The notes under the pieces are model-generated. The model was not told the DNA's origin and did no database searches. It saw only the letters and a program-made list of their open reading frames with translations. From NCBI GenBank assembly GCA_016176525.1, contig JACOWZ010000003.1:385000-448999 (forward strand): a stretch of DNA of 64,000 bases. The letters run 5' to 3'. Positions 2,469 through 49,040 of this stretch are shown one piece after another. The DNA comes from Candidatus Colwellbacteria bacterium. Lineage in GTDB: Bacteria > Patescibacteriota > Minisyncoccia > UBA6257 > Colwellbacteraceae. A program made the position numbers and the translations under genes. The number at the start of each line of letters is the position of its first letter. Position 1 is the stretch's first letter.

Positions 2469-3158
2469 CTATGCACCAAATTTATTGAGCGGGCATTTGT
2501 CGTGTGCGTGGGGTTTTGCGGCACAGTAGGTACGGCCATAGTCTACTAGGCGATAGTTTAATTCCGGCCATTCTTTTTTAGGTAATAATTCCATAAGGTC
2601 CCGTTCAATTTTTACGGGGTTTTTGTGTGCGGAGAGCCCCAGGCGTTGTGATAGGCGCATAACGTGCGTGTCTACTGCAATGCCCTCCACAATGCCGTAT
2701 GCATTGTGTAGCACAATATTGCCGGTTTTGCGCGCTACGCCGGGGAGTTCTAAGATTTCTTCCATTGTATTTGGCACCTTGCCGCCGAATTTTTCTTTAA
2801 CAAGTTTAGCGGAGGCCAAGATATTCTTCGTTTTATTGCGATATAGGCCGATTTCTTTTACGTCTTGTTCAAACTCCTCTTGTGTTGCGTTTACATAATC
2901 ATCCAGTTTTTTATATTTCTTAAAAAGCCGCGTGGTTACTTCATTTACCTTTTTGTCTGTTGTCTGCGCGGACAAAATTGTGGCAACCAGCAATTCCCAC
3001 GGATTTTTCCAATTAATTAGTGCAACTTTTGTTCTTGGAAATAGTTTTTTTAAGATTCTTAATATCTCTTTTGCTCGCTTTTTTCTTTTTTCTATAGACA
3101 TACCCACTTTAGTTTTTATCTTTAACCTTACCTTCAACCAGGTGTTATGATCAATCAT
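2469..3158 (-). CDS. nth: Endonuclease III (DNA-(apurinic or apyrimidinic site) lyase); the true start is probably the internal Met near 3101 (MSIEKRKK...)
   Basis: HhH-GPD region (LPGVARKTGNIVL), C-terminal 4Fe-4S Cys cluster (CAAKPHAHDKCPL). The longest-ORF start lies inside the 24-bp palindrome. Confidence 0.85.
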   Translation of the reverse strand: MIDHNTWLKVRLKIKTKVGMSIEKRKKRAKEILRILKKLFPRTKVALINWKNPWELLVATILSAQTTDKKVNEVTTRLFKKYKKLDDYVNATQEEFEQDVKEIGLYRNKTKNILASAKLVKEKFGGKVPNTMEEILELPGVARKTGNIVLHNAYGIVEGIAVDTHVMRLSQRLGLSAHKNPVKIERDLMELLPKKEWPELNYRLVDYGRTYCAAKPHAHDKCPLNKFGA

Positions 3159-3164
3159 AACACC
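3141..3164. repeat. 24-bp perfect palindrome GGTGTTATGATCAATCATAACACC (copy A)
   Basis: Read directly. Identical 11-bp arms recur at 3756, 28534 and 49017; only the central 2 bp vary. Confidence 0.9.
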
Positions 3165-3421
3165 GTTCTTTCGTTTTTTAATAGTTTTATTTTAGTTCTT
3201 GTGCCGCGGTTATATCCTCCAATTTTACCATCAGAACGTATTACTCGGTGGCAGGGGATGGAGGAGTTGTAATTTTTGTTCAAAATATTGCCCACAGCCC
3301 GGGCCGCGCGCGCATTACCTGCCCGCCGCGCCACCTCTTTGTAGGTTAGAGTTTTGCCGCGCGGAATTTTCTTTACAATTGCGAGTACCCTTTCTCTAAA
3401 CCTTGTCATATTTAGAAGCAA
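3155..3421 (-). CDS. Stand-alone methylated-DNA-protein-cysteine methyltransferase DNA-binding domain protein (COG3695-like)
   Basis: 88 aa; PCHRVI active-site motif with the Cys retained; HTH-like upstream segment. It overlaps nth and truB by a few nt, so it is probably co-transcribed. Confidence 0.7.
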   Translation of the reverse strand: MLLNMTRFRERVLAIVKKIPRGKTLTYKEVARRAGNARAARAVGNILNKNYNSSIPCHRVIRSDGKIGGYNRGTRTKIKLLKNERTVL

Positions 3422-4052
3422 ATTCTTTTAGTGTTAGAGAATTGATGCGGGTGAATTTGCCGACGCGGGTGCGCTCTAGCGCAGCTAGGTAGCCGCCGAC
3501 GCCGAGCTTTGCGCCAATGTCGCGGGCAAGCGAGCGAATGTAAACACCCTTACCGGTTTTTACGCGAATTTCCAAATATGGCCACTTGTATTTAATAAGT
3601 GCAATTTTTTTAATTTCAACTGGCCTTGGTTTTAACGCAGGAGTCTTGCCTTTGCGGGCCAATTGGTAAGCACGCTTGCCTTTGAGTTTTATTGCGCTGT
3701 ACGCCGGCGGGGTTTGCATAATTTTATCCTCAAAGGTTTTTAGCACTTTCTTTACGGTGTTATGATTGATCATAACACCGGTCTCTTCACGCTGCATCGG
3801 GCCTTCTGCATCATCTGTTGCGCTTGTGTACCCAAGTTTTATTTTTGCGATGTATTCTTTATCTGCGGCTACCTGCTTTTCTAGTTTGCGAGTATATTTA
3901 CGGCTGATTGCGACAACAAGCACCCCCTTTGCTAAAGGGTCTAGCGTACCGGCATGTCCGATTCGGCGTTCGCCGGTTATTTTGCGGAGTTTGTTTATTA
4001 TGTCGTGCGAAGTAGGGCCAGTGGGCTTATAAATACCAAAAATACCTTCCAA
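3396..4052 (-). CDS. truB: tRNA pseudouridine(55) synthase TruB
   Basis: GHAGTLDPLAKGVL catalytic motif; QTPPAYSAIKLKGKRAYQLARKG region. Contains the in-frame 8-aa insert GVMINHNT encoded by the palindrome. Confidence 0.9.
   Translation of the reverse strand: MEGIFGIYKPTGPTSHDIINKLRKITGERRIGHAGTLDPLAKGVLVVAISRKYTRKLEKQVAADKEYIAKIKLGYTSATDDAEGPMQREETGVMINHNTVKKVLKTFEDKIMQTPPAYSAIKLKGKRAYQLARKGKTPALKPRPVEIKKIALIKYKWPYLEIRVKTGKGVYIRSLARDIGAKLGVGGYLAALERTRVGKFTRINSLTLKEFASKYDKV
3756..3779. repeat. 24-bp palindrome copy B (GGTGTTATGATTGATCATAACACC), in-frame inside truB
   Basis: Read directly. Confidence 0.9.
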
Positions 4053-4054
4053 AG

Positions 4055-4921
4055 CTATTGTATTTCGTAGCGTACCGTAACGTTAATTATTACTTCTTGC
4101 GAGCCCGGTTCTATAGTGGGCGCAACTTTGCCGGCTTCTTCTGCAACTGCTGCGTCAAAGGAGCGTATTGCAAAAGGCGAGTAATATCCTTCTTCTATTG
4201 ATATAATTTTACCTATCCTGAAACCCGCTGCTTTTGCAGTGGCCTCTGCCTGCACGCGAGCTTTTTCTATTGCCATAGCGCGAGCTTGGTTTTGCAACTC
4301 TGCTGGGTCGTCTATCGTAAAGTTTAGGCTGGATACTGTGTTTGCGCCGTTTTCAACCACTCCGCCCAATAATGCGCTAATTTTCTCAAAATCGCGCACT
4401 TTTACCGAAACAGTTTGGTTTATTTCGTAACCAACAATTTCTGCCGGTGGGCACACGGAGTCGTTAGTTATAACCGTGCTCTCTGCACCGCCAAATCCGC
4501 TAACGCCGCTACCCATGGGGCTAAGAATGCGCGGATAAGATGGTGTGCAGTATTGGTAACGCGGGCTTACGTTGTAGCTCTCGGTTTTTATATCTTCGCT
4601 CTTTACACCCTGTGATTTAACAAAGTCTATTGCTTTGTTTGCTTTTTCAGTGTTGGTTTGTTGAAGCTCTGCCAAATCCAAGCCGCCTTGAGTTGTTATG
4701 CTAAATGTAAATGTTGCAATGTCGGGCACTGCCACCGCTTTGCCTTCGCCAGATGCCGAAAAGCTTCTAAATGATCCCGGTTCAATTTGCTTTGCATACG
4801 AGTCAGCAAATTTTGTTGCCGCGAATGCAAACATTAATATTGCTAATATACCCACTACGCCTAGGGCGTTTTTTATATTGTTTGTCATATCGCTATTATA
4901 CCAAACTATAACGTTCACCAC
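4055..4921 (-). CDS. SIMPL/DUF541-family periplasmic protein (26 kDa periplasmic immunogenic protein-like)
   Basis: N-terminal TM/signal; KARVQAEATAKAAGFRIGKIISIEE-type SIMPL signature. Confidence 0.6.
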   Translation of the reverse strand: MVNVIVWYNSDMTNNIKNALGVVGILAILMFAFAATKFADSYAKQIEPGSFRSFSASGEGKAVAVPDIATFTFSITTQGGLDLAELQQTNTEKANKAIDFVKSQGVKSEDIKTESYNVSPRYQYCTPSYPRILSPMGSGVSGFGGAESTVITNDSVCPPAEIVGYEINQTVSVKVRDFEKISALLGGVVENGANTVSSLNFTIDDPAELQNQARAMAIEKARVQAEATAKAAGFRIGKIISIEEGYYSPFAIRSFDAAVAEEAGKVAPTIEPGSQEVIINVTVRYEIQ

Positions 4922-5029
4922 CCACCCATACTCTACAAGTCACCGGCGTAAAATTCTTACTGAATTTTCGCCTATATCTTACGCCTATGCGCTCCGAAGA
5001 TGACTTTACGAGCATGGCTGGGCGGCTCC
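4916..5029. repeat. ~114-bp intergenic element bounded by inverted repeats, copy i (most divergent)
   Basis: Shares the CACCGGCGTAAAATTC...TTTTCGCC...GCTCCGAAGATGACT core with copies at 25846 and 50831. Confidence 0.7.
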
Positions 5030-5037
5030 GCACTTAT

Positions 5038-5664
5038 TTAGAATAATGAAATTTGATTTTTAGCTTCTGTAGTTTGTTTTGCTTCGGGCGCGGTTTTTGT
5101 AAGCAATGATTCAAAGTTTTTTATAAGTTCCGGCAGTTTTTTAAAGTCTGTTTCTAAATCTTTTAAAACTCCAGTGGAGCGCAGTGCCGCTGCGGGGTGG
5201 TATAGCGGGAATATCAATTTATTGCTCAAGCGAAAAACCCTGCCGTGGTCTTTAGAGATTTTTGCATAAGGCAGAAAGTAGTTCATAGAAAATCTGCCCA
5301 ATGGCGCTATTATTGGCGCATTTAGAATTTCCAGTTCGCGCTTTAAGTATGGAGCGTAGACGGCAATCTCCTCCGGGAGTGGGTCGCGATTCTCTGGCGG
5401 GCGGTGTTTTACAATGTTTGTTATATAGACCGTTGCGCGGGGTATGCCGATATTTACTAGTATTTTGTCTAAAAGTTTGCCGGCACGGCCCACAAATGGT
5501 GTTTTAAGCTCGTTTTCAAAACGTCCCGGCGCTTCGCCGATGAATACAACTTTTGAGTTTGTGTCTCCAACGCCGAAAACAAGATTTATTCCCTGTGCAC
5601 GGAGCGGCAGGGAATTATCAGTATCCATTTCTTCTTTTAGCTTAAGAAGCTCGGCAGATTTCAC
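5038..5664 (-). CDS. Uracil-DNA glycosylase, family 4
   Basis: GEAPGRFENELKTPFVGRAGKLLDKIL motif typical of family 4 UDG. Confidence 0.85.
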   Translation of the reverse strand: MKSAELLKLKEEMDTDNSLPLRAQGINLVFGVGDTNSKVVFIGEAPGRFENELKTPFVGRAGKLLDKILVNIGIPRATVYITNIVKHRPPENRDPLPEEIAVYAPYLKRELEILNAPIIAPLGRFSMNYFLPYAKISKDHGRVFRLSNKLIFPLYHPAAALRSTGVLKDLETDFKKLPELIKNFESLLTKTAPEAKQTTEAKNQISLF

Positions 5665-6227
5665 AAAATTGTTACAGAAGTTATGCTTACTGGTTCTTTA
5701 GGCTTTGAAATTTCTGTTGGGTTAAGAGGGTTCGGCTGGGTTTCTGCTCCGGCAATTTTGTCCACGGTTTCTAGCCCCTCTATAACATGCCCGAATATTA
5801 CATAGTTTTTAGGCAGGGGTTGGTCGGCATGCATTATAAAAAATTGGCTGCCGTTTGTATTTGGTCCGCGGTTTGCCATTGCAACTGTGCCGCGGAGGTA
5901 TTCGCCCTTAAACGGCTCGTCGGCAAAAACGTAGCCCGGCCCACCTGTGCCGTCGCCATTAGGGTCGCCGCCCTGTATCATAAATCCCGATATTACCCTG
6001 TGAAATATTGTGCCGTTGTAAAAACCCTCCCCGGCGAGTTTGATAAAATTTTCTGCCGTTTTTGGAGTTTTATCAGCGTACAATTCTATTTGTATTGTCC
6101 CTGCAGTTGTTTCTAATTGAACTACTGGGTTTGTGATTCTTGTTGTTTGCATATATAAAAGCACCGCAAGCACCGCGCCAACAAACGATAGGGCAAATGC
6201 AGCAGCGATTACTTTTTTTGTGGACAT
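5661..6227 (-). CDS. Cyclophilin-type peptidyl-prolyl cis-trans isomerase with N-terminal membrane anchor
   Basis: FHRVISGFMIQGGDP signature; N-terminal hydrophobic segment; 4-nt overlap with the UDG gene. Confidence 0.9.
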   Translation of the reverse strand: MSTKKVIAAAFALSFVGAVLAVLLYMQTTRITNPVVQLETTAGTIQIELYADKTPKTAENFIKLAGEGFYNGTIFHRVISGFMIQGGDPNGDGTGGPGYVFADEPFKGEYLRGTVAMANRGPNTNGSQFFIMHADQPLPKNYVIFGHVIEGLETVDKIAGAETQPNPLNPTEISKPKEPVSITSVTIL

Positions 6228-6258
6228 AAACCTAATTATACAACATTATAATTAAGCT

Positions 6259-7233
6259 ATGTTAATAGATGAGATAAAAATAAAAATTTCTGGTGGGGCA
6301 GGTGGCAGGGGTGCCGTGGCTTTCCAAAGAAATCTTAAGAGTTTGGGGCCGACTGGCGGGCATGGAGGGCGCGGAGGGAGAGTTTACTTTGAAGGGGTAT
6401 CGGACTTAAGCGCACTCAACCAATTTAGGTTTAAAAAAGACATTAAGGCCGAAGATGGCAAAGATGGCAGGAGCCAGTTTCGAGATGGGTCTGACGGCAG
6501 AGATTTAACCCTAAAAATTCCGGTAGGCACGATTATACACAACGTTACCAAGGGCGCTTCCTTTGAGATGTTAAAAATCGGCCAAAGGTTGCTTGCGGCC
6601 AAAGGCGGCCGGGGAGGCAGAGGTAATTTCCACTTTAGATCTTCGCGGAACACTAGCCCAAAAGAATTTGAAGAAGGCAGGGTTGGAGAAGAATTTGAAT
6701 TAAGGCTTGAATTAAAATTTATCGCAGATGTTGGCTTAGTCGGCTTCCCCAATGTTGGCAAATCAAGCTTGCTAAACGAGCTTACTAGCGCTAGAAGCAA
6801 GGTTGCAAATTATGCTTTTACAACTCTTGAGCCTAATCTAGGCGTTTATTATGAACTTATTCTTGCAGACTTGCCGGGACTTATAGAAGGCGCCTCGCGC
6901 GGCAAAGGTTTGGGCGTAAAATTCTTAAAACATATTGAGCGAACCAAGGTTATTTTTCATCTAGTTTCGGCAGACTCCGCCGACCCGGTTAAAGATTATA
7001 AAACAGTCCGCAAAGAACTGGGGCAATATAGCAAGGAACTGCTAAAAAAACGGGAGTTTTTGATGTTAGCGAAAAGCGACCTGATTGATGCAAAAAGCCA
7101 AAAGACCTTGCTTGCTAAGTTAAAAAAGCTTAATAAGTCGGCTATACATATATCTGTATACGATTGGGATAGTTTGGAAGAAGTTAAGCGTATTCTAAAC
7201 GAACTAGTTAAAGAGAAACATAATTCAGAATAA
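6259..7233 (+). CDS. obg: GTPase Obg/CgtA
   Basis: Gly-rich Obg fold N-terminus (GGAGGRGAVAFQ, GGRGGRG), G1 motif GLVGFPNVGKSSLL. Confidence 0.9.
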   Translation: MLIDEIKIKISGGAGGRGAVAFQRNLKSLGPTGGHGGRGGRVYFEGVSDLSALNQFRFKKDIKAEDGKDGRSQFRDGSDGRDLTLKIPVGTIIHNVTKGASFEMLKIGQRLLAAKGGRGGRGNFHFRSSRNTSPKEFEEGRVGEEFELRLELKFIADVGLVGFPNVGKSSLLNELTSARSKVANYAFTTLEPNLGVYYELILADLPGLIEGASRGKGLGVKFLKHIERTKVIFHLVSADSADPVKDYKTVRKELGQYSKELLKKREFLMLAKSDLIDAKSQKTLLAKLKKLNKSAIHISVYDWDSLEEVKRILNELVKEKHNSE

Positions 7234-7281
7234 AAATCTCGCCTAGTGTTTTGGCGAGGTAGGGTTCTGTGTTTATTGTTG

Positions 7282-7542
7282 TCACGCTTCACCCATTAGC
7301 TTTTTTCTTTCCTTCAGCCATTCAATGTGGAGTTTTTTCTTTTCTTCCTCTTTGTTGATGGCTGTTCCTGTTTCTTCCGCTAGCCCTAAGTTTTTAATGA
7401 ACTTTGCGCACTCCGGGCAATCTCCACTGGAAGTCAGCGCAACTTCCTTGTGTCTTGGGCAGGTTGATATTTCTACCATTTTTTCTCGCGCCCGCGCTTT
7501 TTGTTCTAAGCTCTTTCTAGCACTTTGTAGTGTTAAAGTCAA
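7282..7542 (-). CDS. Small hypothetical protein with CPRH...CPEC zinc-ribbon-like motif
   Basis: 86 aa ORF; Lys/Glu-rich tail; no family recognised. Confidence 0.35.
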   Translation of the reverse strand: MTLTLQSARKSLEQKARAREKMVEISTCPRHKEVALTSSGDCPECAKFIKNLGLAEETGTAINKEEEKKKLHIEWLKERKKLMGEA

Positions 7543-7682
7543 GTTGTGTAAATAAATGTAAAAAGTTTTCCACAGTTTGTGTTTTGTTTACTTGAGCAAA
7601 TAAGATAAAATTATTTTGTAAAGTATTTTTCTCCTTAAAAAATAAAGGTCGAGAGATTTCTAGTGTAAAAAAATAAATTAAA

Positions 7683-7799
7683 ATGGCTAAAAAAAGAAGA
7701 GTAATGAAAAGAAAGACTGCGAAAAAGAGAGCGACCAAGAGAAAAACTACAAAGAGAAGAAAATCTAAGAAAAGAACGACGCGCAGGAGAAGAAGGTAA
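7683..7799 (+). CDS. 38-aa Lys/Arg-rich peptide (MAKKRRVMKRKTAKKRATKRKTTKRRKSKKRTTRRRRR)
   Basis: Not in the ORF track because it is under 60 aa. ATG...TAA, immediately followed by a strong rho-independent terminator. Does not match the L34/L36 consensus. Confidence 0.4.
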   Translation: MAKKRRVMKRKTAKKRATKRKTTKRRKSKKRTTRRRRR

Positions 7800-7815
7800 G
7801 ATAGAGTTGTAAAAA

Positions 7816-9628: not shown

Positions 9629-10761
9629 AAAGGATAGTTATAGTAGCAATTATTTTAGTGGTGGCTTTCGGCATATATAAATTTTATTCTGGAAGAGATT
9701 TAGGTGATGATGGGAGGCTTACACGAGCGATAGGCGAATATAATTGCCCAACGGTTTCCAATCTGCCCGATTTCGGCAAACTTTATGATGGTCCGCTTAT
9801 AGATACTCATATGCATATACCGCATCCGCCCGAAGGGCCGGAGTTTCTTGATTCGTTGCCATATTCCAGCCCGCACCCGCAACTAGGGCGGAGTATCACT
9901 GTGTCTGATTACATATGTAATTTCAAAACCACAGGAATTACCAAAGCTTTTATATTTTTCCCAGTTTTCCGTGGACTTGAAGATCTGCATCTTGCGGTAG
10001 CGGATGCGAGTGTTAAGAGATATCCAGAGTTTTTAGTGCCGTTTATTATGCCTCCAGAGAATGACAATGATCCGAGTGGATTTCCGACTGTAAGTGTTGA
10101 TGTTCTTGGAGAGATGCTCCAAGTGTATTCGGGGCTTTTTAGAGGCTATGGTGAAATAGGGCTCTATGCTCGCGGAGACAATAGAGGACCGACCGGAGCT
10201 CCCGAACTTCCGCCTGATTCAGAGAGGCTTCGCGAAATATACCCCATGATCCGAGAAAATAATCTTCTAGTTTACTTCCACTTAGGTCGCGGTCAGCAAG
10301 AATCTTATGAGCGTGTTTTGTCGGCAAACCCAGACATTAATTTTATATTTCATGGTGATCAGTTGATTCCATATGATCGCGGCGTGCAGAACCTTAATAT
10401 CATTGATGGAATACTTAGCCGTCATAAGAATGTCTATTACGGGATTGATGAGTTATATGGAGATGTTTGGCTTCTACATCCAGATAAAAGCAAAGATCAA
10501 TTCTTCAAACATTTTGAGAACTACGAAGAACTCTTGGAATATGATATCGCAACATGGAAAGGGTTTATAGAACGGCATCCCGACCAAGTGCTTTGGGGGA
10601 CCGACCGCGGGGTTGGCAATATCTGGAGCATGGATCGCGATGTAGGATTAACGCTTACACGTTATGCACGGGCATTTATTGCATTACTCGAACCATCTGT
10701 ACAAGATAGATTTGCTCATTTGAATGCCGAGGCGCTGTTGCTTAAATCATCGAATAAGTGA
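9625..10761 (+). CDS. Metal-dependent amidohydrolase-family (TIM-barrel) protein
   Basis: N-terminal TM; DTHMHIPHP metal-binding His motif. Confidence 0.55.
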   Translation: MKRIVIVAIILVVAFGIYKFYSGRDLGDDGRLTRAIGEYNCPTVSNLPDFGKLYDGPLIDTHMHIPHPPEGPEFLDSLPYSSPHPQLGRSITVSDYICNFKTTGITKAFIFFPVFRGLEDLHLAVADASVKRYPEFLVPFIMPPENDNDPSGFPTVSVDVLGEMLQVYSGLFRGYGEIGLYARGDNRGPTGAPELPPDSERLREIYPMIRENNLLVYFHLGRGQQESYERVLSANPDINFIFHGDQLIPYDRGVQNLNIIDGILSRHKNVYYGIDELYGDVWLLHPDKSKDQFFKHFENYEELLEYDIATWKGFIERHPDQVLWGTDRGVGNIWSMDRDVGLTLTRYARAFIALLEPSVQDRFAHLNAEALLLKSSNK

Positions 10762-24527: not shown

Positions 24528-24600
24528 TTTAGACTTAAAGCTAGCAGTAAAAACGGGCAAACTTGCCCGTTTTTGCGTTTTCAATATAATAAGCAGGTAT

Positions 24601-27233: not shown

Positions 27234-28292
27234 ATGGAACTAATATTCTTTGTTGTACTCACAATTGTTTTAATTGCCGGTTTCGGCCTGATTTTTTGGA
27301 CTTTACGCGGCGGTAAAGGCGAGGCTTCTGCGGGAAACTCGCTTAACCTTATTCAAAACCAGATAAACGAGCTTAATCGCACTTTAGACTCTAAACTTGG
27401 AGAATCGGGTAAGGCAATGCGCGAGCAGTTTTCTGAAAGCGCAAAGATTATTCGCGATGTAACCGAGAAACTAACCAGGCTTGATGAAACCAACAAGCAG
27501 GTTGTTAGTTTCGCGGACCAATTAAGGAGTTTGCAAGACATATTAAAAAATCCAAAACAGCGCGGAGTATTGGGTGAGTATTATCTTGAAACGCTTCTGA
27601 AAAATGTCTTGCCGCCTGATATATACAAAATGCAATATGCTTTTAAAAATGGTGATATTGTTGACGCCGTTGTTTTTGTAGGCAGGAAATCAGATGAGAA
27701 AATTATTCCGATTGATTCCAAATTTTCTTTAGAAAATTATAATCGGTTGGTTGAGGCAGCCGATAAGTCCGAAAAAGATCGCCTTGAGAAACTTTTTGTA
27801 AATGATCTCAAAAACAGAATTGTTGAGACATCAAAATATATCCGACCGGAGGAAGGGACTACTGACTTTGCTTTTATGTTTATTCCACATGAGGCAATTT
27901 ATTACGACCTATTAATTAACAAAGTTGGCGCAGTTTTGGAGGATACGGAAAATTTAATCCAGCGGGCCGCCGGTAAATACAAGGTTTTGATAGTTTCTCC
28001 AACTTCCTTTTTGGCATACCTGCAAACTGTTTTACAAGGCTTGCGTGCACTGAAAATAGAAGAATCTGCAAAAGAGATTAGGAAGCGGGTTGAGGAATTG
28101 GGCAAGCATATGTCGAGTTACGACACATATATGCAGAAGCTTGGTGCCCACCTTGGAACATCGGTAAATATGTATTCCAACGCGTACAAAGAGTTTAAAA
28201 AAATTGATAAAGACGTTTATCGTATAACCGGAGACAAAATGAATATTGAGCCTCTTACTGTGTCTGGCCCGGATTCGGCAGAAGATGAATAA
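27234..28292 (+). CDS. rmuC: DNA recombination protein RmuC
   Basis: N-terminal TM, long coiled coil, C-terminal RmuC nuclease-like domain (FAFMFIPHEAIYYDLL). Confidence 0.85.
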   Translation: MELIFFVVLTIVLIAGFGLIFWTLRGGKGEASAGNSLNLIQNQINELNRTLDSKLGESGKAMREQFSESAKIIRDVTEKLTRLDETNKQVVSFADQLRSLQDILKNPKQRGVLGEYYLETLLKNVLPPDIYKMQYAFKNGDIVDAVVFVGRKSDEKIIPIDSKFSLENYNRLVEAADKSEKDRLEKLFVNDLKNRIVETSKYIRPEEGTTDFAFMFIPHEAIYYDLLINKVGAVLEDTENLIQRAAGKYKVLIVSPTSFLAYLQTVLQGLRALKIEESAKEIRKRVEELGKHMSSYDTYMQKLGAHLGTSVNMYSNAYKEFKKIDKDVYRITGDKMNIEPLTVSGPDSAEDE

Positions 28293-28983
28293 AGTTGGTA
28301 TACAGAAAAAGTGGAGTAAATTTAAACACCGCGTAGGGTTGTTCAATCACGTGCCTTTTGTTGATTTTGCTTTTGCGGCGGGGAGTATGGCGATGGGCTC
28401 GGCGCGCGAGGATTCGGATTTTGACGTAATAGTTGGTGCACGGCACGGCAGAATTTTTACAGTGCGCTTTTTTTCGCATTTATTTTTCGCCTTGCGCAAA
28501 TGGAGAGCAACCCATAATTCAGATTCTCACTTAGGTGTTATGATTAATCATAACACCAGATCTAAAACTGCAGATAAAATATGTTTAAATCATTTTGTAA
28601 CGCCAAAAAGCTATAAATTCTCACCGCCATATAACGAATATTGGAATAAACTGTATTCAAACCTTGTGCCCTTACTCGGAAACGAGCCGGAGATAGAAAA
28701 GTTTATAGATATGAACGATTGGGTGCGGCCGGAGAGAAAATATATGCGCAGCCCTTTCCATGAGAATTTTAAGCCATCGCGCATACGAAAGTTTTTAGAG
28801 CGCGCACTCTCCGGGCCGTTTGGAGACTATATTGAAATAAAACTAAAAGCTTTCCAGATAAAAAGGATAAAGAAAAGCGCGAGTGATCCATCACACTATA
28901 AACCGCGCATAATTTATAGCGACGACGAGCTGGAGTTCCATCCGGATACCAAGAGAATTGAAGAAATACTTACTAAAAAGTAG
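28285..28983 (+). CDS. Nucleotidyltransferase-domain protein (Pol beta superfamily); overlaps the rmuC stop by 8 nt
   Basis: GSMAMGSAREDSDFDV (GS...DxD) NTase motif; contains the in-frame GVMINHNT palindrome insert. Confidence 0.6.
   Translation: MNKVGIQKKWSKFKHRVGLFNHVPFVDFAFAAGSMAMGSAREDSDFDVIVGARHGRIFTVRFFSHLFFALRKWRATHNSDSHLGVMINHNTRSKTADKICLNHFVTPKSYKFSPPYNEYWNKLYSNLVPLLGNEPEIEKFIDMNDWVRPERKYMRSPFHENFKPSRIRKFLERALSGPFGDYIEIKLKAFQIKRIKKSASDPSHYKPRIIYSDDELEFHPDTKRIEEILTKK
28534..28557. repeat. 24-bp palindrome copy C (GGTGTTATGATTAATCATAACACC), in-frame inside the NTase gene
   Basis: Read directly. Confidence 0.9.
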
Positions 28984-32759: not shown

Positions 32760-33104
32760 ATGGCAGTTGAGCAAGATGAAAAGTTTTTGGAGTTTGTAGT
32801 AAAGTCCATCGTTGACAATCCAGACGATGTAAAAATTGAAAGGAAAGTTGACGAAATGGGAGTGCTACTCACTCTAAAGGTGAACTCTAAGGATATGGGG
32901 CAGGTTGTTGGCCGCGAGGGCAACACAGCCAAGTCTATTCGCTCGCTTCTGCGCATAGTTGGCATTAAGCACAATGCCCGCGTTAATTTAAAGATTGACG
33001 AGCCGGATGGCGGCAGAGGTCCGAAACCAAGAGAAGAAAAGTCAGCGGACACCAACTTGGGTTCAGTCAATAAAGTGATTGAAGATATAAAAGATGTAGA
33101 ATAA
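32760..33104 (+). CDS. KH-domain RNA-binding protein (YlqC/UPF0109-like)
   Basis: GQVVGREGNTAKSIRSLL KH GXXG-type motif; positioned between rpsP and trmD as in Firmicutes. Confidence 0.8.
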   Translation: MAVEQDEKFLEFVVKSIVDNPDDVKIERKVDEMGVLLTLKVNSKDMGQVVGREGNTAKSIRSLLRIVGIKHNARVNLKIDEPDGGRGPKPREEKSADTNLGSVNKVIEDIKDVE

Positions 33105-33109
33105 AAAAA

Positions 33110-33136
33110 CCGCCCCCACCGGGGCGGTTTTTTTTA
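33110..33136 (+). terminator. Rho-independent terminator (CCGCCCC-CACC-GGGGCGG + T8)
   Basis: Read directly. Confidence 0.7.
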
Positions 33137-40832: not shown

Positions 40833-40870
40833 CGCAATATTTCAATATTTAAACATTTAAATATTTAAAA

Positions 40871-41191
40871 ATGAGCAAATTTTATAAAATAGTTGTTTTT
40901 GTTCCAGTGGATGCTGCAGATAAAGTGCGGGGTGCTATTACGCGAGCTGGTGGGGGTAGAATAGGTAATTATTCCGGTTGTAGTTTCTCCTCTAAGGGAA
41001 TTGGTCGTTTTAAGCCAGAGATAGGCGCAGATCCTGTTATTGGTAAAGTTGGTCAATCAGAGAAGGTGGAAGAAGAGAGAATTGAGGTTAGATGCGAGGA
41101 GGCAGTAGTTAAAGATATAATCACTGCGATTAAAAAATCTCATCCATATAATGAAGTTGCTTTAGATGTTTATGAATTAGTAGATTTTTAA
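40871..41191 (+). CDS. Small conserved protein, NIF3-insert/PII-like fold candidate (hypothetical)
   Basis: 106 aa; C-terminal HPYNEVALDVYEL motif resembling NIF3/CutA-type domains; weak. Confidence 0.4.
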   Translation: MSKFYKIVVFVPVDAADKVRGAITRAGGGRIGNYSGCSFSSKGIGRFKPEIGADPVIGKVGQSEKVEEERIEVRCEEAVVKDIITAIKKSHPYNEVALDVYELVDF

Positions 41192-41231
41192 TCTTCGATA
41201 TTGAAATATATAAATATTTAAAAATCTAAAC

Positions 41232-41684
41232 ATGGAGTTTAAAGATTTCTTAGTTAGGGCAAAGATTAATACCTATGCGACAGCTGGCGAAGGAGGCGAG
41301 AAAAGACTAAATGATGGCTCAAAAGAACTAATTTATAAAGAAGGTGATTTTATATATCGTGATAGATATTTCGGCGCACTGAGTTTTGTTGGTGAAGAAA
41401 TTGTATTTAAAAATAAGATACCGATTTGGGGTATGAATTACTGTGGCGCAACTATGGATCCGAGTATGACCAATGAAAAAGTTGCCGACTTTCTTAAAAG
41501 GGCCTTGAGAGCAGTTACAAGCGATATGCCATTTCGCGGTCCTTCAGAATTTAAAGAAGGAGATTGGTTCTACATAAATCAAGTTTCAGGCGATGTGAAT
41601 AGTTTCTCTGGTCACGAAGAGATTAAATATAAAGACCATGCTGTTTATAAGCTAGATTATCACGGTGGTATTATTAAAAAATAA
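41232..41684 (+). CDS. Hypothetical protein (DUF5680-like)
   Basis: YATAGEGGEKRLNDGSKELIY.EGDFIYRDRYFG pattern; no confident family. Confidence 0.4.
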   Translation: MEFKDFLVRAKINTYATAGEGGEKRLNDGSKELIYKEGDFIYRDRYFGALSFVGEEIVFKNKIPIWGMNYCGATMDPSMTNEKVADFLKRALRAVTSDMPFRGPSEFKEGDWFYINQVSGDVNSFSGHEEIKYKDHAVYKLDYHGGIIKK

Positions 41685-42591: not shown

Positions 42592-42598
42592 AAGTATT

Positions 42599-43012
42599 AT
42601 GCTAAATAAAGCAGGCGGGGTTGTGTTGAATAAAGATGGCAAGATTGCTATTGTGAAAAATAGTGGCAGGTTCGGCGAATATTGGTCTTTACCTATGGGG
42701 AGAGTAGATGAAAACGAAGATGTTTTTGACTGCGCTCTACGCGAAATTCGTGAAGAAACTGGGTTAGTTAATCTGGAGCTGGTAAAGAAACTCGGCAGTT
42801 ATAACAGAAAGGGTATGGATTATGATAATGGCGAGCCGAAGGAAGTCCCCAAGAAAATAACTTTGTTTTTGTTTAATACAAACGAGATGGAGCTGAAGCC
42901 TGTCGACCCCGACAACCCAGAAGCAAAATGGGTTACAATAGATGAAGCGATAAATTTAATGAGGCACGAGGGAGACAAAGAATTTTTAAGAAGCGTTAAG
43001 GACAAAATATAA
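42599..43012 (+). CDS. NUDIX hydrolase
   Basis: Nudix box GRVDENEDVFDCALREIREETGL. Confidence 0.8.
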   Translation: MLNKAGGVVLNKDGKIAIVKNSGRFGEYWSLPMGRVDENEDVFDCALREIREETGLVNLELVKKLGSYNRKGMDYDNGEPKEVPKKITLFLFNTNEMELKPVDPDNPEAKWVTIDEAINLMRHEGDKEFLRSVKDKI

Positions 43013-43015
43013 AAA

Positions 43016-43435
43016 ATGGAGGATAAAATAGTGTTGCAAGTTGGAGTTAAAGTTTTGCTTAAAAATAAAGACGGCCGATATCTGTTATTGCGCAGATCTC
43101 TAGAAAAATATCCTGAAGTTCCAAATAGGTGGGATATAGCTGGCGGCAGAATTGATCCTGGCACAACTCTGCTTGAGAATCTGAAGCGAGAAGTTATAGA
43201 GGAAACCAGTTTGGAATTAAAAGGAGCGCCGAGATTGGTGGCTGCCCAGGATATTTTGAGGATAAAAGGGCGCCACGTTGTTCGGCTTACATACATAGGC
43301 GAGGCCGAGGGAGAGCCGCGCCTTGATGGAGAGGAGCATGATATGTATAAATGGGTGACTATTCCGGAAATTGGCGAATTGACCGGCGTTGATATTTATT
43401 TTAAAGAATTATTAGATAATAAAGTTATACAATAA
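43016..43435 (+). CDS. NUDIX hydrolase
   Basis: Nudix box GGRIDPGTTLLENLKREVIEETSL. Confidence 0.8.
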   Translation: MEDKIVLQVGVKVLLKNKDGRYLLLRRSLEKYPEVPNRWDIAGGRIDPGTTLLENLKREVIEETSLELKGAPRLVAAQDILRIKGRHVVRLTYIGEAEGEPRLDGEEHDMYKWVTIPEIGELTGVDIYFKELLDNKVIQ

Positions 43436-43450
43436 ATTTTGTAACTGATT

Positions 43451-43966
43451 ATGCCGGCTAAAAAAATAAGCATAGACGAGGCGAAGAAAGACAAACTGTT
43501 TTATTTTGTCACCAATGTTTTAGTGTACAAAGATGGAAAGTGTTTAATATTAAAACGGCACGAACGCGAGAAAGTGCACCCGGGCAAATGGGGCACGCCT
43601 GGCGGCAAGCTTGAGTGGGATGATTTTCCACTAAAGCCGGATGGCGAAGTTTATAACGATGTCTGGCAGTTCCATAAAGCGGTTGAGGATTTATGCAGGC
43701 GCGAGGTACGCGAGGAAGCTGGTTTGGAGATTGGAGATGAGTTTGCATATATTGATTCTACAGTTTTTGTGCGGCCCGATGGCATTCCGGTGGTGCTAAT
43801 AAAACTAGGTTGTAAGTACAAGGGTGGGGAGGTGAAACTTGAAGAAGACGCCTTTACAGACTACGCGTGGGTGGACGCGGAGGAGATTAAGAAGTATGAT
43901 TGCGTGATTAACGTACCGGAAGAAATTGCAAAAACCATAAAACTTTTTGGTAAATATCATGGCTAA
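43451..43966 (+). CDS. NUDIX hydrolase (divergent)
   Basis: GGKLEWDDF...REVREEAGL Nudix-box-like motif. Confidence 0.7.
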   Translation: MPAKKISIDEAKKDKLFYFVTNVLVYKDGKCLILKRHEREKVHPGKWGTPGGKLEWDDFPLKPDGEVYNDVWQFHKAVEDLCRREVREEAGLEIGDEFAYIDSTVFVRPDGIPVVLIKLGCKYKGGEVKLEEDAFTDYAWVDAEEIKKYDCVINVPEEIAKTIKLFGKYHG

Positions 43967-44213
43967 AAATAAACCACTCCCACCGCTTTCGGGAAAAGCA
44001 AAGCAGATAAAAGTAGGAGGCGTATATGAGCATTTTAAAGGTGATAATTATCGCGTAATCGGCGTGGGCCGCGATAGCGAGGATTTACATGAAGTTGTTA
44101 TCTATCAAGGGGAATATGAAGGTAAGCCTATTTTTGTACGTGCAGTCGAGATGTTTTTAGACAACGTTCAAAAACCTGATTACCAAGGCCCAAGGTTTCA
44201 GCTTATAGAATAA
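43947..44213 (+). CDS. DUF1653-family small protein
   Basis: YEHFKGDNYRVIGV...HEVVIYQ pattern typical of DUF1653. Confidence 0.55.
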   Translation: MVNIMAKNKPLPPLSGKAKQIKVGGVYEHFKGDNYRVIGVGRDSEDLHEVVIYQGEYEGKPIFVRAVEMFLDNVQKPDYQGPRFQLIE

Positions 44214-44234
44214 AAACCCTCTAATCGTAGAGGG

Positions 44235-44696
44235 TTAGTAGGGCGTGAATTCTATTTTTTGGAATCCAGAAGCGCTTTCTTTGTAGTGTACTGTAGCGCG
44301 GAATCTCTCGCCGCGGATTGCTTTTGGAAACCATTTGCGGTCTGATTCGAGCATTTGATCCAGAGGCAGTGTGCTTACGCTTACCCATTGCGGGATCATT
44401 TCGCTTGTCTCTTTTGGGCGTCCGCGGAACTTATCGGTCCAAAAAATATGAACCTTGAAATCTGGCTCGCCGCTTGCGAAAAACGTTATCACCGCGATTT
44501 CGTTTAAGGTGCTCGGTATAAGATGAATGCCTAGTTCTTCTCTTGCTTCTCTTACAACACAGTGTAGAAGAGTTTCACCGGGTTCAACCTTGCCTCCCGG
44601 ACCGTTTAGTGTTTTTGCGCCAATTTCGCCCTTTTTCTTGTAACCGAGCAGCACCTTGCCGTCTCTTACTATTATTGCGAGTGTTGCGATTTTCAT
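44235..44696 (-). CDS. NUDIX hydrolase (MutT-like)
   Basis: Nudix box GGKVEPGETLLHCVVREAREELGI. Confidence 0.8.
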   Translation of the reverse strand: MKIATLAIIVRDGKVLLGYKKKGEIGAKTLNGPGGKVEPGETLLHCVVREAREELGIHLIPSTLNEIAVITFFASGEPDFKVHIFWTDKFRGRPKETSEMIPQWVSVSTLPLDQMLESDRKWFPKAIRGERFRATVHYKESASGFQKIEFTPY

Positions 44697-44744
44697 ACAT
44701 CACCTTTAGCGCAGTTGTACTGTTCTATAGTATAGTTATCAGTA

Positions 44745-45230
44745 ATGGATAATCAATACTTGCACGAAGTTGTTATAACTGCGATTGTGGTTAAGGATAA
44801 CAAATATCTTATTACGCGCAGAGCGGCGACGAAAAAGCGTTTCCCTGGAATGTGGACTGTACCTGGAGGCAAACTTGAAACGGATGACTATATAAATTTG
44901 CCGAAAGACACAGAGCACTATTGGTATAACGTTTTGGAGAAGACTTTAAAGCGCGAAGTAAAAGAAGAGGTTGGTGTTGATATTAAAAACATTGAGTATG
45001 TAACAAGTTTAGCCCGCGTGCATGAAGATGGTGCGCCGTCGTTGGTTATTTCTTGCATGGCAGACTATGCAGGAGGCGAAATAACACTACAAGAGGGTGA
45101 AACCGATAAATACGAGTGGGTGAGTTTAGAAGAAGCTAAAAACTACGAGCTTATTGATGGAATTTATGACGAGCTTGCTATGGCAGATGCTAAACTGCGT
45201 GGAGTGAAGAGCGAGTGGAAAAGGAGTTAG
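44745..45230 (+). CDS. NUDIX hydrolase
   Basis: Nudix box GGKLETDDY...LKREVKEEVGV. Confidence 0.8.
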   Translation: MDNQYLHEVVITAIVVKDNKYLITRRAATKKRFPGMWTVPGGKLETDDYINLPKDTEHYWYNVLEKTLKREVKEEVGVDIKNIEYVTSLARVHEDGAPSLVISCMADYAGGEITLQEGETDKYEWVSLEEAKNYELIDGIYDELAMADAKLRGVKSEWKRS

Positions 45231-46329
45231 CATGGTTTAGTAAAATATTTATCTTTTTTTGGAAGTTTTCTTTGGAGAATTTCTTTGCGGTTTTTGAAAC
45301 GGTTCGGCGGTTAAATTTAAACCTAGTAAAAGCCTCAATCGCGGCTATTAGGGCCTCTGGGGACTGCTCATCAAAAAGTACTCCGTTTGTGCCGTCTTCA
45401 ATAATTTCTGTCTGGCCACCTTTGTTGTAGGCAATTACCGGCGTGCCGCAGGCAATAGACTCTGCCGCTGTTAGCCCAAAATCTTCCACTTGCGGAAAAA
45501 TTGTCGCGCGAGCGCCGCTTATAATTTTGCGCATTTCGTCATCGTGTTTCCCATTGCCGATCAACTTTATATTTGGCGATGTAATAATCTGTTCAACTTT
45601 TTCTCTATGCGGGCCGTCGCCCAAGATTATAAGCGGAGTATTAAGTTTGTTGAACGCTTTAACTATTAAGTCAAATTTCTTGTAGTGGAGTATGCGCCCG
45701 AAGGCAAGGAAGTATTCGTGTTTGGAAAACGGCAGCTTTTGTACAGGTTCCTCTTTGTCATAATAGAAAGTATTAGTGTCAACCGGCGGGTGAACAACAA
45801 AGACATCTCTGCCATAGAATTTGCGCACTTTATCTGCTGTAAATTCAGAGTTTGCCAGTAGCATATTAGGCTTTAACCCCATGCGCTCATCCCAGTTTTT
45901 AAGGTAAGAAATTATAGGGTGGGCGGCCTTGATAAGCGATTCATCAAAAAGAGTACCAAGATATTCTTGAGGTTCCCATGCGTAGCGAAGAGGCGAGTGG
46001 GTATAGCTTATATGGAACCCACGGCTGTATCTTATGCCTTTTGCCCAGCCTGCAGTGGCAGAAATTATAATATCGTATTTGTCGCCTAAATTTATGCTAT
46101 TTGCCGCTCCAGGCATTAGCGGTACAAAAAAACGGTGGTTTTTGTGCACCAGAGAGTTGTTTAAAAAGCTGGTTTTTATTGTTTTGCCGGCAAAGTGGCC
46201 GTTTTGGGAGCCTGGCTGGTGGAAGAGGGTATAGATTGGCGCTTCAGGGAACATCTCGGAGAGTGCTACAAGCACACGCTCCGCTCCGCCGAATTGATTT
46301 AGATAGTCGTGGACTAATGCTACACGCAT
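45190..46329 (-). CDS. Glycosyltransferase family 4 (GT-B fold)
   Basis: MRVALVHDYLNQFGGAERV N-terminus; EDFGLTAAESIACGTPVIA C-terminal sugar-donor motif. Confidence 0.85.
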   Translation of the reverse strand: MRVALVHDYLNQFGGAERVLVALSEMFPEAPIYTLFHQPGSQNGHFAGKTIKTSFLNNSLVHKNHRFFVPLMPGAANSINLGDKYDIIISATAGWAKGIRYSRGFHISYTHSPLRYAWEPQEYLGTLFDESLIKAAHPIISYLKNWDERMGLKPNMLLANSEFTADKVRKFYGRDVFVVHPPVDTNTFYYDKEEPVQKLPFSKHEYFLAFGRILHYKKFDLIVKAFNKLNTPLIILGDGPHREKVEQIITSPNIKLIGNGKHDDEMRKIISGARATIFPQVEDFGLTAAESIACGTPVIAYNKGGQTEIIEDGTNGVLFDEQSPEALIAAIEAFTRFKFNRRTVSKTAKKFSKENFQKKINILLNHANSFSTRSSLHAV

Positions 46330-46341
46330 AGTTATAATTCT

Positions 46342-46950
46342 ATGGTGAAGTACCCTTTTTGGAAACGTGTGGAGGACATTTTGGGCTCTACCTTTGGGAT
46401 TTTGCTTATTTCGCCCATTTTGCCTTTTATAGTTCTAGCAATAAAACTTGAGTACCCGCGTGAAAAGACACTTGTAAAACTAAAAAGAGTAAGCGAAGGC
46501 AAGATAATAGAAGTATATAAATTTAGAAATATGATACCGAATGCGGATAAAATAAAAAAAGATCTATTACATTTAAACGAACGCACAGACGGCCCGTTTT
46601 TTAAGATTTCTAGAGATCCACGCGTGACGCGGGTTGGGCGAGTGTTGCGCAAATTTCGCTTAGATGAATTTCCGCAGCTTATAAATGTTTTGCGGGGCGA
46701 GCTTGCGCTTGTGGGTCCACGGCCGCATGAGCGCGAGGAGGTTGATGCCTACCCCGCGGAGTATAAAGATATAGCTGAATATAGAGCCGGAGTAACCGGT
46801 CTTTCACAAGTTAGCGGCGCATCAAGCCTCGCTTTTATGCGCGAGCTTGAACTGGACAAATTTTATATACAAAACCGTTCTTTATGGATGGATGTTAAAA
46901 TACTTTTTAGAACCGCCGCGATTTTATTTTTTGACCCAACAGCAGTATGA
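46342..46950 (+). CDS. Bacterial sugar transferase (polyprenyl-phosphate hexose-1-phosphate transferase, WbaP C-terminal-type)
   Basis: N-terminal TM; DEFPQLINVLRGELALVGPRP and AGVTGLSQV motifs. Confidence 0.85.
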   Translation: MVKYPFWKRVEDILGSTFGILLISPILPFIVLAIKLEYPREKTLVKLKRVSEGKIIEVYKFRNMIPNADKIKKDLLHLNERTDGPFFKISRDPRVTRVGRVLRKFRLDEFPQLINVLRGELALVGPRPHEREEVDAYPAEYKDIAEYRAGVTGLSQVSGASSLAFMRELELDKFYIQNRSLWMDVKILFRTAAILFFDPTAV

Positions 46951-48998
46951 AAAAACAACCGATAAATAACGTAAGGTATGTAGTAAAAGATGTTTATCAT
47001 CCGCGGGAGCGCGGGCGTAAATTGCGCAAATCCACAAAAAGCTCCGGATATTTTTCGCGCGCCGGTTGGGTGCCTAATAAATTTAATATAAAACCGCGGC
47101 GCCTGCCATTTGGAGTGAGGAGAGTTGCAGCCTTTGGGGCACTCGCCATATTTTTGGCTGTGTTTGCTTATGGAGGTTATCTCTGGAGCTATAAAGACGA
47201 TGGGATGCGTTCTATTTCTAATATCTATGAGAACTTTAAGTCGGCTGCAGAAAATATGGTGCTCTTGAACACTGATGCAGCGCGGGAATTTTTAGAAAAC
47301 ATAGAAATTGAAGTTAAAGGCATTGATGGCAGAACAAAACTCTTGAACGCGGCGCCTGTTTTAAGCGAAGTTCCACGCGCAGTCGGCAATATTGCGGAGC
47401 TCACTACTCTTATGAATTTACTGAATTCCGATGTTGAAAGTTTAAAGACCAATGGCTTCAATATGCTTTTTAGCGAAACCGGCCAAGGAATAACGAGTAT
47501 TTTAAAGAATACTCAAGCAAATATTGTTAAAATAGAAAATCTCGTAAGAGAGCTTAAAAACGCTGCCTCGAAGTTTGGGCTTGCCTCTACAACCATAGCC
47601 GGCGATTATTTAGCGCTTGATGTTAGCCTTACTAGGGGCTCTGATTTCATTAACGGCATCTTAAATCTTTTGGATTCTGGCGAGGATAAGAGATTGATTG
47701 TATTTTTTGAAAACCCTTCGGAGATTAGGCCCGGTGGCGGGTTTTTAGGCAGTTATGCAGAATTAGTGCTCGGTGGCGGCAGAGTAAAGCAGATAAATGT
47801 AAACGATGTTTATTATCCTGTGCGGTTTTCCGATTTTAAAATTGTGCCGCCTAAGCAGTTGCAAGCTATAGTGGGCAGTTGGAACACACAGGATGCGAAT
47901 TGGTTTTTTGATTTTGCAATGTCTGCCGAAAAAACCCTTGATTTTTTGGAAGCCTCGGATATTTACGAGGGTAAACATATGGCAGGCGCAGTCGCAATAA
48001 ATGTAAAAGTCATAGAAGATATATTGCCGCTTATCGGGGAAATAGAGGTGCCAGAATATGGGCTTACACTAACTTCTAAAAACTTTTTGCGCGAGGTACA
48101 AGAAGAGGTTGAGGTAGGTAGAGATAAGAAGCCCGGCCAGAACCCCAAAAAGATTTTAAATATTATAACGCCAATTTTAATGGAGCGGCTCTCAAACTTA
48201 GATGATAACGACAAATTACAGCTTGCCCAAATTTTTGCAAAGCGCGCTATAAACAAAGATATAAAGTTTTATTTCCGCGACAAAACCCTACAAGATTTCG
48301 CAGAAGAATATCTTGTTGCCGGCAGGGTGTTTAAAATACCCACAGGGTTTAGTGGAGATTACTTAGCTGTAGTTAATGCCAACGTTGCGGGAGGGAAAAC
48401 CGATGTTTTTGTGCGCCAGAGTATTGATTTAACTTCACATATAGATAGTGCTGGTGCAGTTGTAAACAAGCTCTCTATTGAACGTGCACATGAGGGCTAT
48501 GGTGAGAGAGAATGGTGGTATAGGGCGACCAACCAGAATTACATAAAAGTATTCGCGCCCACCGGCGCCAAGCTAGAGAGTTTGAGCGGCAACACTTCTA
48601 AAAATGTAACTCCCTTGGTAGACTATAGCATCGCGGATTATAAGGTTGATGAGGATTTGTCTTATGTGGAAGATACTAGAAGGTTCTTAACAGAGTTTGA
48701 AACATCTGAGTTTAAGGAGCTTGGAAAAACTTCTTGGGGAACATGGTTTAGCGTACAGGCAGGGGCAGAGCGCACACTTGAATTGCAATATGTTAACCCT
48801 AAGCGCGTGCGCGCTTATGATGGGGCAAAATATATATTTGTGCTAGACAAGCAATCTGGAGTTGAGTCTGAATTTAAGTATTCAATTGCTACACCGGAGG
48901 GTTTTGTGTGGGCAGAGTCCGGCACAAGTATATTCGAATATTCTACAAGAGAGATCCCCGCGCGGCTTACAATAGAATTAACTCTAAGAGAAGAATAA
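46947..48998 (+). CDS. Large membrane-anchored extracytoplasmic protein, DUF4012-like
   Basis: N-terminal TM; conserved ENPSEIRPGGGFLGSYAEL motif; follows the sugar transferase with 4-nt overlap. Confidence 0.55.
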   Translation: MKKQPINNVRYVVKDVYHPRERGRKLRKSTKSSGYFSRAGWVPNKFNIKPRRLPFGVRRVAAFGALAIFLAVFAYGGYLWSYKDDGMRSISNIYENFKSAAENMVLLNTDAAREFLENIEIEVKGIDGRTKLLNAAPVLSEVPRAVGNIAELTTLMNLLNSDVESLKTNGFNMLFSETGQGITSILKNTQANIVKIENLVRELKNAASKFGLASTTIAGDYLALDVSLTRGSDFINGILNLLDSGEDKRLIVFFENPSEIRPGGGFLGSYAELVLGGGRVKQINVNDVYYPVRFSDFKIVPPKQLQAIVGSWNTQDANWFFDFAMSAEKTLDFLEASDIYEGKHMAGAVAINVKVIEDILPLIGEIEVPEYGLTLTSKNFLREVQEEVEVGRDKKPGQNPKKILNIITPILMERLSNLDDNDKLQLAQIFAKRAINKDIKFYFRDKTLQDFAEEYLVAGRVFKIPTGFSGDYLAVVNANVAGGKTDVFVRQSIDLTSHIDSAGAVVNKLSIERAHEGYGEREWWYRATNQNYIKVFAPTGAKLESLSGNTSKNVTPLVDYSIADYKVDEDLSYVEDTRRFLTEFETSEFKELGKTSWGTWFSVQAGAERTLELQYVNPKRVRAYDGAKYIFVLDKQSGVESEFKYSIATPEGFVWAESGTSIFEYSTREIPARLTIELTLREE

Positions 48999-49016
48999 GC
49001 TTTAATTCACATTGCA

Positions 49017-49040
49017 GGTGTTATGATCAATCATAACACC
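49017..49040. repeat. 24-bp palindrome copy D (GGTGTTATGATCAATCATAACACC), 28 bp upstream of lepA
   Basis: Read directly. Confidence 0.9.

Follow-up and report, generated by a model that had tools for sequence, protein, structure and literature searches.

TrpR and HisR (YerC) are small all-helical proteins of the helix-turn-helix (HTH) type (Pfam PF01371). They bind 20-bp perfect or near-perfect palindromes that have a 2-bp centre that is not read and outer bases TGT...ACA or CAC...GTG. These operators overlap the -10 region, and a site is found at the regulator's own gene. The reported operators of TrpR and HisR are TGTAcTnGTnnACnAgTACA and cacTTTAnnnnnnTAAAgtg (PMC9413887). We analyzed a 64-kb stretch of the genome of a Candidatus Colwellbacteria bacterium (GenBank assembly GCA_016176525.1, contig JACOWZ010000003.1, positions 385,000 to 448,999; called the window here) that contains four copies of a 24-bp palindrome. 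We found that this palindrome belongs to a family of sites that are tightly linked, in other Patescibacteria, to genes for TrpR-like proteins. The reading that we prefer, and that we consider to have about an even chance of being correct, is that the four palindromes serve as operators for a TrpR-like regulator whose gene lies outside the window.

Next to nothing is known of how the Patescibacteria, or candidate phyla radiation (CPR), regulate transcription. If the preferred reading is correct, then a widespread TrpR-family protein and a 20-24-bp palindrome make up a testable regulator-operator pair, often embedded in type IV pilus loci and with clear specificity variants. In addition, identical operator copies would have been gained within one lineage, some of them in genes, and this bears on how regulons grow in reduced genomes. 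In the literature searched, we came across no account of this pairing of regulator and palindrome, and a literature sequence search with the palindrome gave only chance matches to primers.

An initial annotation of the window had reported four identical palindromes. Exact matching confirmed all four occurrences of the pattern GGTGTTATGAT-NN-ATCATAACACC (also GGTGTTATGATNNATCATAACACC) and their gene contexts (Table 1). The palindrome is perfectly symmetric, with an 11-2-11 geometry and the core TGTTATGAT-NN-ATCATAACA. As the annotation had proposed, the copies are beyond chance: there were no matches in 100 dinucleotide-preserving shuffles of the window, and identity was all or none. Allowing up to 3 mismatches, we found no further degenerate copies of the 24-mer in the window, and there were no solo 11-mer half-sites with up to one mismatch outside the four palindromes (0 expected). 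A relaxed search with the 18-bp core gave two extra 3-mismatch matches, which is the chance level. The sequences surrounding the copies have nothing in common. An alignment of the 100-nt flanks revealed no shared sequence beyond the 24-mer, and local alignments of the 60-nt flanks gave similarity that was not above that of random window pairs. Because the flanks are no more similar than background, the repeated unit is, on these alignments, just the 24-mer, and a longer shared repeat is ruled out.

Two of the three reading frames through the palindrome contain stop codons. Both in-gene copies, 2 and 3, use the sole open frame and are translated as GVMINHNT, again as had been described. Window positions 1-4943 are matched with 100% identity by two Logan assemblies built from separate SRA runs, and both include copies 1 and 2 in the same orientation. 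These independent assemblies (for copies 1 and 2) and the intact reading frames rule out an assembly artefact or an adapter as the source of the copies.

Table 1. Palindrome copies and associated features, in window coordinates.
Feature	Position	Strand	Central dinucleotide	Context or basis
Copy 1	3141-3164		CA	MGMT-domain stop and annotated nth start (minus-strand genes)
Copy 2	3756-3779		TG (CA inverted)	Inside truB
Copy 3	28534-28557		TA	Inside NTase-like gene, plus-strand reading
Copy 4	49017-49040		CA	DUF4012-lepA spacer
nth (endonuclease III, HhH-GPD)	2469-3158	-		Annotated start within copy 1
MGMT DNA-binding/active-site domain gene, 88 aa	3155-3421	-		PF01035, 103 bits; PCHR motif
truB, host of copy 2	3396-4052	-		Profile match and homologue alignment
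Nucleotidyltransferase (NTase)-like gene, 245 aa, host of copy 3	28246-28983	+		Weak Polbeta match
DUF4012-lepA spacer, 70 bp, with copy 4	48999-49068	+		Comparison with three relatives
lepA	49069-50820	+		Directly downstream of copy 4

We found that the 24-mer is a member of a larger palindrome family in Patescibacteria. A palindrome scan of loci from elsewhere (designated by L numbers) revealed related palindromes near exact copies, namely (G)TGTTATGATATATCATAACA(C), CACTGTTATGCTATAGCATAACAGTG, CACTATGCTATAGCATAGTG and CGCTATGACATGTCATAGCG; the family can be written YTATGMT-NN-AKCATAR. We compared the flanking open reading frames (ORFs) of these loci, all against all. There was one recurrent neighbour, a protein of ~140 amino acids (L004/L014, L018/L024 and L017). 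It matches Pfam Trp_repressor (PF01371; cut-off of 27 bits) with scores of 34.1 and 32.6 bits, and a third protein scored 25.7 bits. At nine loci, family palindromes lie on both sides of the PF01371 gene, at distances of 17-270 bp before the start and 2-33 bp past the stop. The sites flanking the TrpR-like gene in L018 and L024 are exactly of the window type, (G)GTGTTATGAT.

A search with the TrpR-like protein family gave 484 matches, mostly in Parcubacteria (Paceibacterota, Wolfebacteria, Jorgensenbacteria). For a blind test, four loci (L031-L034; 77.6 kb) were picked by protein match and long contigs only. In all four, family palindromes preceded the start of the TrpR-like gene by 17-270 bp and followed its stop by 2-19 bp, sometimes with a third family site ~120 bp further on. 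Every one of the 14 family sites in these loci was within ~270 bp of the TrpR-like gene, and none was elsewhere in the 77.6 kb. There were also no family sites in 103 kb of control Parcubacteria DNA (fetched via lepA, truB and window extension). That is, family palindromes are tightly linked to TrpR-like genes. Pairs of sites 430-620 bp apart recur around these genes, in L009 and L013, and as copies 1 and 2 of the window.

The type of half-site tracks the start of the predicted recognition helix of the TrpR-like protein. Proteins with SLQT at this position go with TTATG(A/C)T half-sites (5 loci), and those with WLSPQT go with CTATGCT half-sites (3 loci). A second paralogue in L017 (WLS-SQT) is without a flanking family palindrome. 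In a profile search of the TrpR-like protein against PDB, 3kor was matched with E = 5e-4 and Escherichia coli TrpR with E ~0.03 (range 5e-4 to 0.04), and an AlphaFold model had a pLDDT of 77. Comparisons of sequence and fold with solved TrpR structures are thus weakly consistent with membership in the TrpR family.

The pair also resembles TrpR and HisR at the level of the operator: TGTTATGATNNATCATAACA has the 9-2-9 layout and the outer TGT...ACA of the published motifs (PMC9413887). There are several differences from the described systems. The half-site is TTATGAT or CTATGCT here, and the protein is extended at its N-terminus and has a basic tail at the C-terminus, ending in KYGTVYxP. The regulator gene has sites at both of its ends, including one at the stop codon, and the sites in the window are perfect and identical, with two inside genes. 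The hosts are without Trp and His biosynthesis, and no effector is known.

We made two further observations at the TrpR-like loci. The TrpR-like gene lies within a type IV pilus cluster (T2SSE, T2SSF and LamG-domain pilins) in L034 (1017-7889), L024 (4340-8811), L018 and L017 (3-2246); the pilus cluster of the window itself (from 52.4 kb to 64 kb and beyond) is without one. In addition, L033 has a 38-bp palindrome, TTTCTTAGTTAACTTAGTTAACTAAGTTAACTAAGAAA (9780-9817), upstream of its TrpR-like gene that is made of overlapping CTAAGTTAACTTAG units like those of the E. coli trp operator.

We infer that a regulator of this kind is present in the genome of this bacterium, that it binds the palindromes and represses, with an effect on nth and lepA, and that the intragenic copies also have a function. 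The predicted regulator would belong to a Patescibacteria-specific YerC/HisR-like subfamily of ~140 amino acids with a basic C-terminal tail. The palindrome would be a high-information binding site for the dimeric HTH protein, with each 11-bp arm serving as one half-site (core TTATGAT) and the central dinucleotide not being read. The sequence of each arm, TGTTATGAT, differs at one position from TGnTATAAT, the consensus of an extended -10 element, and because of this likeness a bound dimer would be expected to occlude RNA polymerase. A promoter scan of copy 1 on the minus strand gave TTAAAA-16-TG.TATGAT directed toward nth, in which the palindrome arm is the TG-extended -10. Four TrpR-like genes have a palindrome whose end is 17-21 nt ahead of the start codon. 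In the E. coli trp operon the operator overlaps the core promoter, and by analogy the geometry of arm and promoter fits such an overlap here. Copies 1 and 4, which are 28-45 nt upstream of the nth and lepA starts, may be repressible promoters or operators. Copies 2 and 3 may be auxiliary sites, for looping or as a roadblock, that are tolerated in variable protein loops. The four identical copies probably arose by copying within this lineage.

We looked at each copy in its gene context. On the minus strand, copy 1 forms the end of the MGMT-domain gene, with its final codons and TGA stop. It also provides an in-frame ATG, overlapping that stop as ATGA, that gene callers take as the start of nth and that would give the protein the N-terminus MIDHNT.... 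Judging from typical endonuclease III N-termini, the likelier start of nth is M20 (ATG at 3101; MSIEKRK...), ~40 nt downstream of copy 1. Copy 2 is 335 bp upstream of the start of the MGMT-domain gene and 615 bp from copy 1, and the two copies bracket this gene. The MGMT homologue consists of the C-terminal DNA-binding/active-site domain only. The start of its gene overlaps the 3' end of truB by 26 nt.

The GVMINHNT segment of truB is in a variable linker between the conserved motifs DDxEG and FxGxIxQxPPxYSA. The initial annotation had proposed that orthologs of the host genes would show a clean presence or absence of 24 bp. We found that the truB linker is the same length as in 19 homologues. 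Thus, as far as this alignment goes, there is no net insertion in truB at copy 2. The closest other TruB is 66% identical, and the truB-MGMT-nth gene order was not conserved in the relatives examined. The NTase-like gene was partly in line with the proposal. Its product has 8 additional amino acids at the site of copy 3 relative to its nearest homologue, but the loop is length-variable: 23 residues in the window protein, 15 in the nearest homologue and ~12 in most others. It is possible, although not proven, that 24 bp were inserted in this gene. An RmuC-family gene (PF02646; window 27234-28292) overlaps the start of the NTase-like gene. RmuC has been linked to limiting rearrangements at short inverted repeats; its position beside copy 3 may be a coincidence.

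Copy 4 starts 18 nt past the stop of the DUF4012 gene and ends 28 nt ahead of the lepA ATG. Three relatives have the same DUF4012-lepA order (L044, L045 and L046, near position 10000 in each), and there the gap between the genes is 0, -11 and -4 nt, compared to 70 bp in the window. The DUF4012 C-terminus and the LepA N-terminus of these relatives both align to the window proteins. Since the genes abut or overlap in the relatives and both termini can be aligned, the spacer with copy 4 is, by this comparison, a lineage-specific gain, although one of 70 bp rather than 24 bp. The closest other LepA is 69% identical.

The exact 24-mer is rare outside the window. Among 185,579 species genomes it occurs once, in a Saccharibacteria metagenome-assembled genome. 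There are 27 stretches with it in Joint Genome Institute (JGI) metagenomes, representing ~16 independent contexts of 24-55% GC. All of the exact copies outside the window are intergenic. Each metagenome contig has a single exact copy, including contigs of 41-140 kb, and none is found in the 7.6 kb downstream of the window. The window, with four copies in 64 kb and two of these within genes, is unusual compared to at most one per 40-140-kb contig elsewhere. We also considered a phage origin and rejected it: the exact 24-mer was absent from 2.9 million viral contigs, and looser cores gave 2 and 4 matches there, none with a TrpR-like gene.

The genes that flank the metagenome copies are unrelated housekeeping genes (ackA, nusA, clpP, gltX, leuS, dnaX, clpB and others). 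Several copies are at core-promoter distance from a gene. For example, the exact palindrome in L002 is bracketed by TATAAT hexamers and is 25 nt before ackA. In low-GC CPR contigs (L006, L009, L013, L016, L021, L025 and L028), a conserved ~150-bp block has the exact palindrome at its left edge and holds TTACTT-17-TATAGT and AATTTTGAA repeats; the left flanks are unrelated. This block could be a repeated promoter or small-RNA module.

Several results weigh against the palindromes being operators of a TrpR-like regulator. No TrpR-like gene is present in the window or the next 7.6 kb downstream of it, and we found no functional theme among the flanking genes. Two of the four window copies are intragenic, which is seen nowhere else. 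For a regulon, it is atypical to have four sites with the same 22 specified bases and none that are weaker. The correlation between helix and half-site comes from two clades and few independent events. Structural support for a TrpR fold is weak: TrpR entries dominate the Foldseek list for the model, yet all have E >= 0.35, which is not significant. In L004/L014, L005, L011, L022 and L026, perfect hairpins of 36-44 bp with A and T tracts have the core at their apex; in L004, L005, L011 and L014 these hairpins (40-44 bp) are between convergent genes, where there is no promoter. In addition, TrpR-like genes consistently have a site at the stop codon or overlapping with it, as does the MGMT-domain gene here. 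The hairpins and the stop-codon sites leave room for a role as an RNA hairpin or roadblock, or for palindrome-driven template switching that extends the arms.

It is unlikely that the palindrome works mainly as an RNA hairpin, i.e., as a terminator or as a processing or stability element in the transcript. The 10-11-bp stem folds at -13.5 to -17.9 kcal/mol. The long hairpins just described would suit such an element, as would the copies at or right after stop codons (the MGMT-domain gene, the DUF4012 gene and all TrpR-like genes). However, the window copies have AT-rich stems without a U tract on the coding strand, and a terminator-like score was obtained for copy 1 only, on the non-coding strand. 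Canonical terminators of this genome look different (e.g., those at 33103-33134 and 24549-24574). Two of the copies are located in coding sequence, there were no matches to Rfam families, and the stem sequence does not covary but stays the same, which suggests that it is recognized in a sequence-specific manner. A crossover site for a serine recombinase or invertase, of the hix, gix or res site I type, is very improbable. Such sites have two inverted half-sites of ~12 bp around a central dinucleotide, much like the 11-2-11 layout with its variable centre, and copies 1 and 2, with inverted centres (CA/TG), might bracket a 591-bp invertible segment. But inversion between them would truncate truB, both independent assemblies had them in the same orientation with no inversion seen, and no recombinase was seen among ~50 window proteins (Pfam scan or recognition by eye). 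The protein linked to the family in other genomes has an HTH only and is not a recombinase. The initial annotation had also suggested a Fur/PerR-type operator. That suggestion was right in kind, as a regulator site, but the linked protein is a TrpR-family HTH protein. The core ATGAT..ATCAT is like the Fur box GATAATGATAATCATTATC, and TGTTAT is like Zur boxes. The Fur box is a 19-bp inverted repeat with 9-1-9 (7-1-7) spacing, and this does not agree with 11-2-11. No Fur-family gene was found among ~50 window proteins, no metal-uptake genes are next to the copies, and it is TrpR-like genes to which the family is physically linked instead. A box for a metalloregulator of the Fur, PerR or Zur type is thus the kind of site to which we give almost no credence.

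It is also possible, though we hold this only tentatively, that the palindrome is a miniature non-autonomous copy-and-paste element. The initial annotation favored this notion, and it stands in part. A 24-bp unit would have been inserted, and would survive only where it is harmless: between genes, at junctions where it supplies a stop and a start codon, and in tolerant loops when in frame. Such a unit could be a protein-binding site as well. The four copies are identical to the outermost GG/CC positions, which vary among the sites at TrpR-like genes. Their centres are all pyrimidine-purine (YR; CA, TG, TA and CA), whereas 24 of 26 deduplicated exact copies elsewhere are purine-pyrimidine (RY; GC, AC, AT and GT). 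The common centre type and the identity to the outermost positions suggest that the four copies share ancestry within this genome. The density of copies in the window, the gain of the spacer with copy 4, the additional amino acids in the NTase-like protein, the use of the open frame and the fit of copy 1 to an ATGA stop/start junction are also in keeping with mobility. In contrast, truB has no length change, the gain at lepA is 70 bp rather than 24 bp, and there are no target-site duplications and no flank similarity. The annotation had proposed scanning for a transposase, a recombinase or a Fur-family regulator and counting copies in related genomes. None of these proteins, nor a RAYT, was present among ~50 window proteins (Pfam scan or recognition by eye), and the element is rare rather than highly iterated and elsewhere always intergenic. 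We know of no mechanism for moving a 24-bp unit. A combination of the two readings seems rather doubtful to us: an operator would spread through a streamlined CPR genome as a 24-bp copy-and-paste or copy-and-replace unit, landing in ORFs (as GVMINHNT) and at stop/start junctions and rewiring nth and lepA under the TrpR-like regulator without a recognizable transposase.

Known families of short palindromes share some properties with this one. Repetitive extragenic palindromic (REP) sequences are short and dispersed, and the gene for their presumed binding protein, the RAYT, is flanked by palindromes. However, REPs number in the hundreds and are imperfect and extragenic, and the RAYT belongs to the HUH Y1 transposases; the protein here has an HTH and no catalytic domain. 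The window proteins that were scanned or recognized by eye did not include a Y1 transposase. Rickettsia palindromic elements (RPEs) are also found in frame within protein-coding genes, but they are ~100-150 bp and add a clear peptide insertion; the element here is 24 bp and leaves the length of truB unchanged. The cyanobacterial palindrome HIP1 (GCGATCGC) is present in coding regions without indels, but it is 8 bp and occurs thousands of times per genome, compared to 24 bp, four copies per 64 kb and global rarity here. parS (bound by ParB) and matS (bound by MatP) are perhaps closer: a few near-perfect palindromes per region, some in genes, are bound by an HTH protein. But there is no ParB or MatP nearby, the window has no match to canonical parS within 3 mismatches, and the family elsewhere clusters at the TrpR-like gene rather than at the origin or terminus.

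We rejected three other candidates. A LexA/SOS box was suggested by the neighbours nth and the MGMT-domain gene, but flanking genes at other loci have no DNA-repair theme. The NrdR box has a different motif. We found no linkage to a tRNA or a known RNA.

Several other features of the comparison loci and the window are worth recording. L003, a CPR contig with a HicAB-like pair, has four copies of a different palindrome, TGATGGAGGTTSAACCTCCATCA, within 1.5 kb (109-137, 825-847, 1060-1082 and 1577-1599). Long intergenic regions of very low-GC CPR genomes are filled with CCTGCCTGCCGGCAGGCAGG-type GC-rich palindromes and with repeats like CTCCGAAGGAGGATCC (L013 3990-4470; L021 2280-2325; L028 4097-4116; L006 989-1008). 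In L032 (5473-7641), a tyrosine recombinase (Phage_integrase) gene is split by an intein with a LAGLIDADG endonuclease domain. The spacer downstream of secA in the window has AT-rich palindromes (ATATTTAAACATTTAAATAT and similar) at 40837-40872 and 41195-41236, and the 40-44 kb block has the lowest GC content (0.39) and the highest GC skew of the window. Lastly, the region from 42599 to 45230 has five NUDIX-type hydrolase genes together with deaminase-like, DUF1653, DUF5680 and PNPOx-like genes. Two of the five NUDIX-type genes (42599-43012 and 43016-43435) have Pfam matches, and the other three were recognized by eye.

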